Virus record (IMG/VR): IMGVR_UViG_2609459832_000009
Coordinates: 1-4,557 of that record
DNA length: 4,557 nucleotides
Direction: 5' to 3' (one strand)
From: a virus
Taxonomy: Duplodnaviria > Heunggongvirae > Uroviricota > Caudoviricetes
Shown here: in pieces, positions 1 to 3,000 of the stretch
Position numbering within the stretch: position 1 is the stretch's first letter
Layout of the letters: each line of letters starts with the position of its first letter
Made by a program: the position numbers

Positions 1-3000
1 CGACCATCAGCTGCTTTGTAGTGGATCAAGTACTGGTTTTCGCCATCCGCATACTGCGCGCGGGCTTTAACCTCACCCCATTCATCACTGATACGCATCT
101 CCACCAGTTGAGACAACTCAAACTTAAACGGAGAAGCATCAGCACCAATTACAATCGGTTTGTTTTCTGTTTTTTCCATCATCGTCTCCTGATATCGAAG
201 CCCGTCGCCGCACCGGGCACTGATCAACATTTGAGTATTCGCGGCGACAGAAAGAATTTATTTTATTGAGTAGCCACAAACACAGAATTTCATGCTTACC
301 GGACGCTGGCGCATCCTTCATTTTTCAGCAAAATATTCTGCTCTTACGGGCGATCAATTCTGTGTGCACCGCCGAACGCCATCAATAAGCTGGCAGACCT
401 GAGAAGCCGTATCGAAAAGCTGACGCGCCTTATCCAGGCTGACGCACCCCACCAATAAAAAAGGCACCAGTATCGCTACCAGTGCCCATTTCGCCGCCGC
501 TCGCGGCATTCTGTGTGTCCAGTGCTTCCGCTTCATCTCGCTATCCACCAATCAATCCGGATAAGCTCAATACTCGCCAGGCGGTGGAAATGAAAATAGC
601 AACCAACATTGCTGAAAATGAAAGGCCAACAACCACACAAAGAATCCGCGCCAGTTTTATAATGCTATCTGACATGCTTTACTCCTTAATCCCCCTCTCA
701 CGATTTCACCGCAATGACCAATTCTGCCAGCCCATACAGTACCGGATACACAGTGATACCGACCGCCAGCCACTTAATGGCAAAGGTTACCGCCCACAAC
801 AATTCAACGCTCATCCTTTCAGATAAATCATCGTGTAAGCGGCCATCGCTGTACAAAGAACCCATGCAACTGGCGTCAGGATATGGCGAACACCCCGGCA
901 TATCGCAATGATCTTCGCGGCATCATCCGCTCCCTGCGGAGTGGTTTCTGCTTTTATCATCAGACCATCTCCAAATTTATCTTTCGTCGTGTTAGGCTTT
1001 ACTGGCATGAATGATCCCCATGCGCATTCACAAAATGAATCCATAAACACAAAACCCCGGACTGTTCCCGCAGCCGGGGTTTTGCTTAACTTATCGTTTC
1101 AGCTGGAAGTGAGGTCCGTCTTTCAGGCTGGTCCAGTCGCCGCCCCATTCGATGGCGGTTCCCAGTTCTTCGCCAGCCTGCTTAAATGCCCGTGCGATTT
1201 TCTCGTACAGAGGCCAGTCCCAAGACACTTGGCTGCCAATATAAGCCACAACATCAACCGCATCACCGGTCAGGTGACGGCTGTTCATGGTCTGGCTTTT
1301 CCCTTCCGCAACCAGCTGTTTCTGGCGTTCTTTCGTGCGCAGTCCTTCCGTAATACCGAAATCCACCTCCGTCAGCTCCAGCGCACGGCGAACGACAGCA
1401 ACCAGCTGTGGTTTGACGCCCTCCAGATTTTTCTCGCTCCGACGACTGAATCTGAATTTACCCGACATGTTCACTTCCGTTATGAAAGAATTTTTGAAAC
1501 GTTCCCGCGTGCGCGAACCACCAGCACGCAGAACAGCAGATTCGCCATCACCATCAGCCAGCTACCCGAAAGTGCAATGCCACAGAGAAAGGCAAGCGGT
1601 GTCAGCGCATATACCGTCATCAACCCCCAGGCCAGCCATGACATCAGCGGTTTATGTCTGGAATCGCGACGGCGGTAAAAAAAAAGCGTCAGCACGATGA
1701 CCGTACATAACGCCACGTTCAGTAATTCAGAAAGGTTATCTGGCATTGCCACCACCTCCATTCCTCAGGCGGGAGAACAAACCGGATATCAGCGCTGCAA
1801 TATCCTGCTGGTGGATGAATGCCAGAATCTTTACCGACATCACTGACATCAGCACCGCACACAGTGCATCCGCCGATGTACCGTCATAACCTGTTTTTGA
1901 TGCAACCCAGGCTGACAACGCACGTGCACCCAGCACGCCAACAATAAATGACACCAGAAAATGTGCCGCCACTCGCCAGCCTGAAAACGCCTGCGGCATC
2001 GTGGCCACGAACAACGCCCCGGCGAATGCACCAAACACAATCCCGAAATCCGTTCCGGTAAACAGCCCGAATACCGTCGCCCCGCCGAGCGCCGCAGCCG
2101 TACCGGAACCGGATAAGGGTTCAGACATAAATACCTCTCAAAATCAGCGTGATGGGAGTTTATACCAAGTTATAAAATTATGTGATTAAGTATCTTTTTG
2201 TGGTCCCATACAATAATCAGATGAACTACATGTGCTTAAAGAAATTAGTTCGTTAGTAGAGAAAGCCTTTTTAAACTCGGAATCACTCCACACATTTTCC
2301 TTATAATAGACCCTTATACTTTCACCAGTAGCATAATAATACTTAGCCATTTCCATCATGGCATCGAAACCTTGTTTATGATTCCCAAAAATATCCACCT
2401 TACAAATACTGTGAACAGGAAGATTCAAATTATCACGCTTTATTCCAATGCAAAAAAACTGACTTTCCTGCCCCCCAGATGTGTAAACACCATATGAAAA
2501 ATTATTAATCTGGACATTGCTCAAATACTTATCATAATCACTCATCACTGCATGACTTGTACCAGATAACAATGAAAGAGCAATTAAGGAATATTTTATT
2601 TTCCGATTCATAAAACCTCTTATATACGCTAATAAGTTAATCAACAAATCAAATAATAAACACATCATTTCAATAGCATCATTTTATTATTTCTTTTAAC
2701 ACACCTCTTGCATCATAAAATTCGGGTTCATAATAAGTGGCTCTTTTATTTAAACCATCTCTTCTGACTCCCTTCAGAGCAAAACAGGCACTGATCAGAC
2801 TTCCAAATGCATTGATTCTTTCTCTAACTGACACAGTTGGTACAACTAATTGAGGTATAACACCTGGATTTACAAATGTGGATCCAGGAACATACCTGGC
2901 ATTGGTGGTTCCGGGTCCATCAGATACTTGACTGTTGAATCTGTCATAAGTCAACTCCACAGCCTCAACAATATTCTCACTAGGGATATGTTCAACTGCG

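Follow-up and report, generated by a model that had tools for sequence, protein, structure and literature searches.

The closest described relative of the locus analysed here is the lysis region of the Stx2e phage phiP27, for which a 'separated' two-component spanin with singleton inner-membrane (i-spanin) and outer-membrane (o-spanin) families has been catalogued (Kongari et al., 2018, BMC Bioinformatics 19:326; PMC6139136). The i-spanin was placed at 20348..20542 and the o-spanin at 20706..20861; the periplasmic part of the o-spanin is 30 amino acids (aa) long and 83% helical, and the combined periplasmic length of the pair, 62 residues, was the shortest of 586 systems in a surveyed range of 62-300 (PMC6139136). 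No spanin was found in 13% of the genomes of phages of Gram-negative hosts (PMC6139136). Breach of the outer membrane (OM) by phages lacking a recognisable spanin is an acknowledged open question. The window examined here comprised 4,557 nucleotides (nt), positions 1 to 4,557 of the IMG/VR virus record IMGVR_UViG_2609459832_000009 (Caudoviricetes). At the distal end of its lysis cassette are two small genes: lipo60 (354..536), encoding a 60-aa prolipoprotein, and tm44 (541..675), encoding a 44-aa single-pass membrane peptide (window coordinates refer to the minus strand unless marked otherwise). The phiP27 o-spanin belongs to the same family as lipo60 and, like it, is encoded behind the holins and an M15 endolysin. 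Because lipo60 stands in the genomic place of the lambda-type spanin genes Rz/Rz1, it most likely acts at the OM step of lysis. The favoured reading, given a probability of roughly 55%, is that lipo60 is an i-spanin-independent lysis lipopeptide of the OM step and tm44 a generic accessory lysis peptide. As such, lipo60 is a concrete candidate for spanin-less OM breach in a genetically tractable host.

The terminal gene of the lysis cassette, lipo60, matched phrog_7528 from end to end (residues 1-60 to positions 1-60 of 60, E = 2.2e-35). The translated sequence MKRKHWTHRMPRAAAKWALVAILVPFLLVGC satisfied the PROSITE PS51257-type lipobox rule. The prolipoprotein comprised a signal peptide of codons 1-30 (536..447), a lipobox LVGC (455..444) with Cys31 as the lipidation residue, and a mature lipopeptide of 30 aa CVSLDKARQLFDTASQVCQLIDGVRRCTQN (446..357) followed by the stop codon at 356..354. 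Residue +2 was Val; Asp was not present at this position. An earlier note, made from the DNA alone, had described a lipoprotein with this lipobox and a very short Cys-containing mature part beginning 4 nt after the stop of the 44-aa open reading frame (ORF). Each of these points held: the ATG at 536 is exactly 4 nt past the tm44 stop, and the mature part contained two further cysteines, C48 and C57, that were invariant in 35 aligned homologs. In the alignment Cys31, C48, C57, the h-region ALVAILVPFLL and the n-region M-x-R-K-H-W-T-H-R-x-P-R were all invariant or nearly so. The signal peptide was the only hydrophobic segment of lipo60. The mature part was amphipathic (hydrophobic moment, muH, about 0.5) with a net charge of +1, and AlphaFold2 modelled the protein as a single long helix at low confidence (pLDDT 66).

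Both small ORFs are genuine genes under purifying selection. The ratio of nonsynonymous to synonymous diversity (piN/piS) was 0.255 for lipo60 (56 unique coding sequences, CDSs) and 0.267 for tm44 (13 unique CDSs), while the other same-strand frames gave 0.95-1.8; the synonymous-site check named in the earlier note thus came out in favour of coding. The lipo60 length of 183 nt was kept in 56 of 59 unique homologous CDSs. The earlier note had also called the ORFs unannotated, which was true in part. Hypothetical proteins were predicted by PGAP in Escherichia coli UTME-13 (WP_001284011.1 and WP_136800203.1), while lipo60 had no annotation in the 100%-identical UTAK-3, and the ORF annotated over it in phiP27, L32, is out of frame.

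Searches with the two small proteins, which the earlier note had proposed, returned the full-length phrog_7528 match and, for tm44, phrog_4906 (residues 1-43 to positions 7-49 of 49, E = 1.6e-19). A word-indexed search identified 151 close relatives of lipo60 in E. coli, Citrobacter, Salmonella, Cronobacter and Yersinia, and among 5,426 complete E. coli genomes 352 carried lipo60. An exhaustive search of 1.84 billion representatives with a lipo60 hidden Markov model returned only 22 clusters, all of them lipoproteins of 44-71 aa; the family is therefore narrow, and no link from these clusters to a known family was found. No Pfam family matched lipo60 at E <= 1, including the Bor, Cor, entericidin and colicin-lysis models, and there were no matches in NCBIfam or PADLOC and only chance matches in a profile search of the PDB. 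For tm44 no match was found in Pfam, NCBIfam or PADLOC. Literature searches by accession and PHROG id returned nothing on these small proteins.

Loci were obtained from 80 viral contigs and 3 genomes via the lipoprotein alignment and, for 6 loci, via tm44 homologs; neighbouring genes were mapped by tblastn with the window proteins. Wherever a lysis cassette was recognisable, lipo60 was the last gene, on the same strand and 3' of the cassette. Loci L006, L021 and L058 had no holin or endolysin matching the window proteins; reading of the ORFs in L006 gave a holin, a GH108 endolysin and lipo60. The 5' neighbour of lipo60 was the endolysin stop in 40 of 93 loci, mostly of M15 type with a 14-nt gap (14-16 nt or overlapping), including two in which a GH108 endolysin overlapped or abutted the lipo60 start. 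In 34 loci the neighbour was tm44, always at a 4-nt gap, and in 16 it was a hydrophobic peptide of about 28 aa ending in ...VRWW, at a 1-nt gap; three loci had other arrangements. In all, 59 of the 93 loci contained lipo60 with no tm44. Cassette partners varied between M15 and GH108 endolysins, between PF16931 + PF05449 and PF05106 holins, and between P27-type and lambda-type terminases. The tight spacing of the two ORFs 3' of the lysis genes and the placing of the lipoprotein in a spanin position, both claimed earlier, were thus confirmed, the phiP27 homolog being itself a putative o-spanin.

Comparison with loci ending in Rz/Rz1 revealed that lipo60 occupies the same slot and is exchangeable with these genes. 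A 28-aa peptide gene and its junction CGTTGGTGGTGATATG preceded Rz in L094 and lipo60 in L003, L019 and L026, and the homology between the Rz and lipo60 versions stopped at the ATG. In E. coli ETEC1716 a P27-type holin-holin-M15 cassette ended in a tm44-like ORF and Rz in place of lipo60. Within 2.5 kb on either side of lipo60, the lipo60-bearing loci scanned contained no homolog of the lambda-type Rz/Rz1 queries and no recurring type II membrane (i-spanin-like) ORF. Isolated toxin-converting phages in which lipo60 was intact and the locus yielded no Rz/Rz1 included phiP27 and phiSTEC1575-Stx2k. Co-occurrence with Rz/Rz1 was seen once, in the Stx-like phage GER2 (MG710528; L099 2474..2680), where the lipo60 homolog was a pseudogene with three in-frame stops about 750 nt 3' of intact Rz/Rz1. 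Thus, lipo60 and Rz/Rz1 appear to be mutually exclusive. Already catalogued as a putative o-spanin, lipo60 is on this evidence an orphan replacement for Rz/Rz1.

Two further observations were made around this slot. Short hydrophobic peptides ending in ...AVRWW (28-57 aa, phrog_4493/1115-like) are separated by 1 nt from the start codon of the gene that follows, be it Rz or lipo60, and those at L003 2786..2872, L094 2777..2863 and L098 1826..1999 shared an identical junction TGGTGGTGATATG. A 116-aa ORF with an N-terminal transmembrane domain (TMD) lies about 1.3 kb 3' of lipo60 in a Cronobacter locus (L088 4659..5009); it occurred only there and beyond a reverse-strand gene, and was rejected as a general i-spanin.

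The phiP27 o-spanin at 20706..20861 corresponded to the lipo60 homolog read from Met10, and identity over the full 60 aa was 85%. The annotated phiP27 CDS L32 (20630..20785) covers the actual lipoprotein gene in the wrong frame. The published start of the o-spanin is probably wrong, and the comparison points to Met1, that is, a protein of 60 rather than 51 aa. A start at Met10 was rejected on several grounds: the N-terminal nine residues were conserved at the protein level with normal synonymous change; T, I or V stood at position 10 in many homologs; and a Shine-Dalgarno-like motif precedes Met1, with duplex energies of -4.9 kcal/mol for Met1 and -3.3 for Met10. In the window this motif is GGUGGA (544..549), which overlaps the last tm44 codons. 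A GGTGG/AGGTG motif was located 4-8 nt before Met1 in the majority of upstream contexts, and in every common one.

The catalogued i-spanin partner in phiP27 (20348..20542; L001 4061..4255, +) is a 64-aa ORF unrelated to tm44. Since it has a TTG start, no PHROG match and, antisense to it, a 90-aa ORF (L001 4045..4317, -) that matched phrog_36812 end to end (E = 5e-20) behind a GGAGA Shine-Dalgarno, the ORF is probably spurious and not a gene. When the whole phiP27 genome was scanned, credible lipoboxes were confined to lipo60 and to L05, a 275-aa ORF close to the integrase, and a credible type II membrane protein in the range of 60-250 aa was not found. The phiP27 spanin assignment was bioinformatic and was built on this TTG ORF, which has no homolog in the window; the window and about 40% of the relatives lack an i-spanin candidate. 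These comparisons correct the record on three points: the phiP27 i-spanin is probably no gene, the o-spanin start is probably misplaced, and a family of 43-48-aa membrane ORFs 5' of Rz is mostly unannotated in the phage records that contain it.

That family is the one to which tm44 belongs. The tm44 gene MSDSIIKLARILCVVVGLSFSAMLVAIFISTAWRVLSLSGLIGG has an ATG start and a TAG stop (543..541). A motif scan and duplex energies identified its Shine-Dalgarno UAAGGAG (682..688) 6 nt before the ATG, with a predicted duplex to the 16S 3' end of -8.7 kcal/mol, the strongest among the window gene starts. The single hydrophobic segment covered residues 11-29 (Kyte-Doolittle mean 2.81). Both the best Shine-Dalgarno of the window and the single transmembrane segment had been proposed in the earlier note, and both were recovered. 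The K/R distribution weakly favoured an N-in orientation, which would leave a predicted periplasmic tail of 13 aa containing no Cys.

A sensitive DNA search with 354..690 matched 1,964 of the 5,426 complete E. coli genomes, mostly at 60-80% identity. Only 55 of these genomes had the tm44-lipo60 pair; set against the 55 and the 352 with lipo60, the 1,964 matches mean that at least about 1,600 genomes match in the tm44 part only. In four of four tm44-only loci inspected (O157:H7 F7349, Ecol_316, HM670 and ETEC1716), tm44 homologs of 43-48 aa lay a few nt 5' of a full Rz with embedded Rz1. These homologs, at L093 2486..2632, L094 2515..2646, L095 1805..1936 and L096 1783..1917, belong to lambdoid/Stx-type prophages; the one in O157:H7 F7349, a 48-aa ORF, had 67% aa identity to tm44 (E = 2e-19). 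A tblastn search located tm44 homologs in 276 phage records. Most of these are of Stx1a/Stx2a-converting phages, and the homologs usually have no annotation there. Peptides of the phrog_1115 type, which include the neighbouring 38-aa ORF p38, and the 28-aa peptides were also found 5' of Rz. The tm44 family, made up of 43-48-aa membrane ORFs that are mostly unannotated, is much larger than its pairing with lipo60. It is a generic pre-spanin accessory ORF, independent of lipo60 and not its dedicated partner.

The independence of tm44 bears directly on the proposal that tm44 and lipo60 form a dedicated minimal two-component spanin, in which tm44 would be the inner- and lipo60 the outer-membrane subunit and the two would bridge or fuse the membranes. 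The gene order is that of an i-spanin followed by an o-spanin, and the 4-nt gap was invariant in the 34 tm44 loci, including those with homologs of 77-86% identity (Citrobacter, Cronobacter and a lambda-like E. coli prophage). The single TMD of tm44 with its weak N-in preference would also suit an i-spanin, and a pair with 62 residues was accepted for phiP27 (PMC6139136). The same invariant gap makes translational coupling from tm44 to lipo60 plausible, to judge from the gene layout, although lipo60 also has its own GGUGGA motif. Against the dedicated pair, lipo60 occurred apart from tm44 in the majority of loci, 40 times directly after the endolysin, and tm44 homologs preceded complete Rz/Rz1 in every tm44-only locus inspected, a class of more than 1,600 genomes, and recurred in the phage records above. 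The phiP27 'i-spanin' that served as the precedent is both unrelated to tm44 and probably spurious.

The published properties of spanins also separate the two proteins. As in an o-spanin, lipo60 has a lipobox, no Asp at +2 and the cassette position. An i-spanin is a type II inner-membrane protein whose periplasmic domain is sizeable and largely helical or coiled-coil, encoded within, across or near the o-spanin gene. For this there was no counterpart: the tm44 tail is of 13 residues, and no candidate was found within 2.5 kb of lipo60 in the loci scanned nor across phiP27. Spanin subunits can also be linked by disulfides between periplasmic cysteines; mature lipo60 has the invariant C48 and C57 and the tm44 tail no Cys, and any bonds of the two lipo60 cysteines may be intra- or intermolecular. 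The tm44 tail and the 30 residues of mature lipo60 sum to 43 residues, below the 62-residue minimum of the survey. Such a length would extend at most about 150 Å, or about 65 Å as a helix, and the width of the E. coli periplasm is generally quoted as about 200 Å or more. This reach argues against a pre-formed tm44-lipo60 bridge across the periplasm, and a two-component spanin of this kind is considered quite unlikely. The dedicated two-component unit of the earlier note was accordingly not upheld.

An intrinsic-terminator-like element was identified inside lipo60 by a terminator scan (452..487, codons 17-29, W-ALVAILVPFLL). It consisted of an 11-bp stem (487..462) with a 4-nt GCGA loop, followed by a U-tract at 461..452 UUUUUUAUU, and had the layout of an intrinsic terminator, a GC-containing stem-loop with the U-tract directly behind it on the transcribed strand; the predicted fold was -21.8 kcal/mol (z = -3.2). 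The 26-nt hairpin was near-invariant at the nucleotide level across about 85 loci. Synonymous differences per codon were 0.016 in codons 18-26 vs 0.185 elsewhere (permutation p = 0.0005); the degenerate peptide patterns used to collect the loci include ALVAILVP, which biases amino-acid conservation and should not bias synonymous sites. In Lelliottia the hairpin was kept nearly base-for-base despite 58% aa identity, and Cronobacter variants had a different h-region and no U-tract. This embedded terminator-like hairpin is a new feature. It may restrict full-length lipo60 mRNA to Q-antiterminated late transcripts, which would make sense for a product that does harm outside lysis.

The hairpin and the slot both bear on a second alternative, raised in the earlier note, that lipo60 is a lysogenic-conversion or superinfection-exclusion lipoprotein (Bor/Iss, Cor or T5 Llp-like) that merely happens to lie behind the lysis genes, a dedicated OM disruptor then being dispensable. 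The small size and OM type of the lipoprotein suit this proposal, as does its setting, since the lysis-packaging region is rich in morons and toxin genes lie just upstream in the window and its relatives; spanin-less phages, moreover, exist (PMC6139136). The gene is nevertheless co-oriented with the late operon and linked to it by its Shine-Dalgarno, 14 nt past the endolysin in the commonest arrangement. A promoter scan found no sigma-70-like promoter in 150..1250, and the internal hairpin would cut transcripts that are not antiterminated inside lipo60. The lack of Bor, Cor, entericidin or PADLOC matches, the apparent exclusivity with Rz/Rz1 and the decay to a pseudogene where Rz/Rz1 is present likewise disfavour a conversion role, which is regarded as rather unlikely.

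Under the favoured explanation, an i-spanin-independent lysis lipopeptide, lipo60 and tm44 would be transcribed in the minus-strand late operon. The prolipoprotein would be lipidated at Cys31 and cleaved by signal peptidase II, and the mature form, with Val at +2, would be sorted by Lol to the OM. The predicted product is a largely helical, amphipathic 30-residue lipopeptide with two conserved cysteines. It would perform, or enable, the last lysis step at the OM in the absence of a canonical inner-membrane spanin subunit. Two mechanisms can be envisaged. The lipid-anchored amphipathic helix may destabilise the inner leaflet of the OM once the peptidoglycan is gone, or lipo60 may act in the manner of a colicin lysis protein, a likeness hinted at by its small size and its conserved signal peptide and not by homology. 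tm44 would be an inner-membrane peptide encoded 5' of whichever OM-step gene is present, Rz/Rz1 or lipo60, and most likely modulates lysis. More tentatively, a Lol-delivered, disulfide-bearing and partnerless lipo60 could represent a distinct class of OM disruptor, perhaps with a released signal peptide and gated by the terminator; this extended proposal is possible but doubtful.

The n-region of lipo60 (codons 1-16, 489..536) was unusually long (16 aa) and strongly basic, with R3, H5, W6, T7, H8, R9 and P11 conserved and a piN/piS of 0.24, like that of the mature part. This conservation hints that the signal peptide may itself be functional.

Several points weigh against the favoured explanation. 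The lytic function of lipo60 is a prediction from sequence and context, and its mature part is only 30 aa long and nearly neutral (+1). No sequence relation to a known spanin, disruptin or colicin lysis protein was found in Pfam, BLAST or PDB searches. The strong conservation of the n-region (RKHWTHR) is not accounted for by this reading, and an efficient internal terminator would lower lipo60 expression. Unrelated genes intervene between endolysin and lipo60 in some loci, among them the 90-aa reverse-strand ORF in phiP27 and Ant in Salmonella (L004). The lambda bor moron is presumably located in the same lysis-packaging stretch. The loci were retrieved via conserved peptide patterns and are thus a biased sample. 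Finally, the absence of Rz/Rz1 does not force lipo60 to be an OM disruptor, since about 13% of phages are spanin-less (PMC6139136).

Compared with lambda-type Rz/Rz1, lipo60 shares the cassette position, the upstream small-peptide genes and the junction. Rz1 resembles it in being a prolipoprotein of about 60 aa, with a mature part of 40 aa and a periplasmic Cys. The two did not align by BLAST, however, and lipo60 is predicted to be helical and is not proline-rich. Unlike Rz/Rz1, it has neither an embedding i-spanin gene nor a protein able to reach across the periplasm. The colicin lysis or bacteriocin release lipoproteins have mature parts of about 28-33 aa, act alone on the envelope and have a functionally important signal peptide. 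The likeness of lipo60 to these proteins (Lysis_col) lies in its very small size and its unusually conserved signal peptide; it differs in having no Pfam match to them and in being phage-borne within a holin-endolysin cassette. The unimolecular spanin (T1 gp11) and the disruptin (phiKT gp28) are single-gene alternatives for the OM step of lysis. A unimolecular spanin needs a C-terminal TMD, which lipo60 does not have, its mature part lacking any TMD. Disruptin is cationic and has no lipid anchor, and the net charge of mature lipo60 is, by comparison, only +1.

A regulatory role was also considered, in which lipo60 and/or tm44 would time or localise the action of the holin, the endolysin or envelope failure and would not be the OM-breaking effector. 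A small single-TMD protein can be indispensable for lysis at the holin level, as is the 65-aa transmembrane protein Lcc6 of the Shewanella phage LambdaSo, which is strictly required for lysis (bioRxiv 10.1101/2024.01.23.576932). By size and type Lcc6 is a precedent for tm44, p38 and the 65-aa ORF p65. The two differ in that Lcc6 works at the holin step and tm44 is tied by position to the OM-step gene. That tm44 accompanies different terminal genes, and that TM peptides of phrog_1115 and phrog_4493 cluster at the same place, would be consistent with regulation. For tm44 regulation is the preferred reading and forms part of the favoured explanation. For lipo60 neither the precise substitution for Rz/Rz1 nor the loss beside Rz/Rz1 would be expected of a regulator, and regulation in place of OM disruption is judged distinctly unlikely. 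Less probable still, and in fact highly improbable, is a role as a membrane toxin module, which the earlier note had listed and which was taken here as a type I toxin-like or hok-like pair with no part in phage lysis. The short, very hydrophobic tm44 with its very strong Shine-Dalgarno has the look of such a toxin, but it lay inside a lysis cassette on the late-operon strand in every locus examined, no antisense RNA family or promoter was found, and the antisense ORF at 482..826 (+) has no Shine-Dalgarno. This 114-aa antisense ORF was also rejected as a gene in its own right: relatives have a truncated version of it (76 aa in L027), and its constraint is the usual antisense-frame echo of constraint on the sense strand.

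The window is the late region of a phiP27-like E. coli prophage, with the lysis-cassette distal end on the minus strand. It was 100% identical to prophages of E. coli UTAK-3, UTAK-18 and UTME-13 (1,100 bases compared), and matched phiP27 at 84% identity in 2129..1098 and 94% in 536..1. Gene order was taken from the PGAP annotation of the identical UTME-13 locus together with Pfam and PHROG searches, and all relevant genes were on the minus strand. In the 5' part a DUF1133 Q-like protein is followed by an ArtAB/Plt-like toxin, a PF16931 holin, a PF05449 holin and the M15 endolysin. In the 3' part a terminator-like hairpin is followed by p65, p38, tm44, lipo60 and a phrog_1935 protein, beyond which, outside the window, lie an HNH gene and then the terminase. 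The two holin-family genes (1480..2128; Pfam, PHROG and PGAP) overlap, PF16931 at 2128..1736 and PF05449 at 1746..1480. The M15 family endolysin (Peptidase_M15_4, 1091..1468) was supported by Pfam (E = 3e-12), the PHROG endolysin family (E = 3e-74) and PGAP. Neither a credible Rfam match nor a tRNA was found.

The boundary between the endolysin and the small-ORF cluster was marked by a terminator-like hairpin and U-tract (1049..1085; RNA fold -24.6 kcal/mol, z = -4.1). The same element apparently lies 3' of the GH108 endolysin in L027, judging from the antisense ORF translation. The p65 ORF (811..1008) has a C-terminal hydrophobic segment and is a PGAP hypothetical protein (WP_032220544.1) with no match in Pfam or PHROG. 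The 38-aa membrane peptide p38 (698..814) matched phrog_1115 in the C-terminal part of that family, and its start codon shares bases with the stop of p65 (ATGA); p38 was not annotated in the RefSeq record, and its homolog in GH108-type cassettes was a 60-aa ORF.

Lysis by these phages sets free Stx, ArtAB/Plt-like and LT-II-like toxins, and the machinery behind it therefore bears on toxin release. The toxin pair of the window (2186..3404) was of the pertussis-like AB5 type, with a 241-aa scabin-related ADP-ribosyltransferase and a subtilase-family B subunit, and was located between Q and the holin, the slot of stx2e in phiP27. In the Cronobacter relatives L087-L089 this slot contained Enterotoxin_a and LT-IIB genes. 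A lipo60 homolog with 87% aa identity was also found at 20079..20258 of PP818812.1 (vB_Apl-pPE4), a record labelled as an Actinobacillus pleuropneumoniae phage. At the DNA level the record was about 89% identical to the E. coli prophage lysis region described here, and the host label was unexpected.

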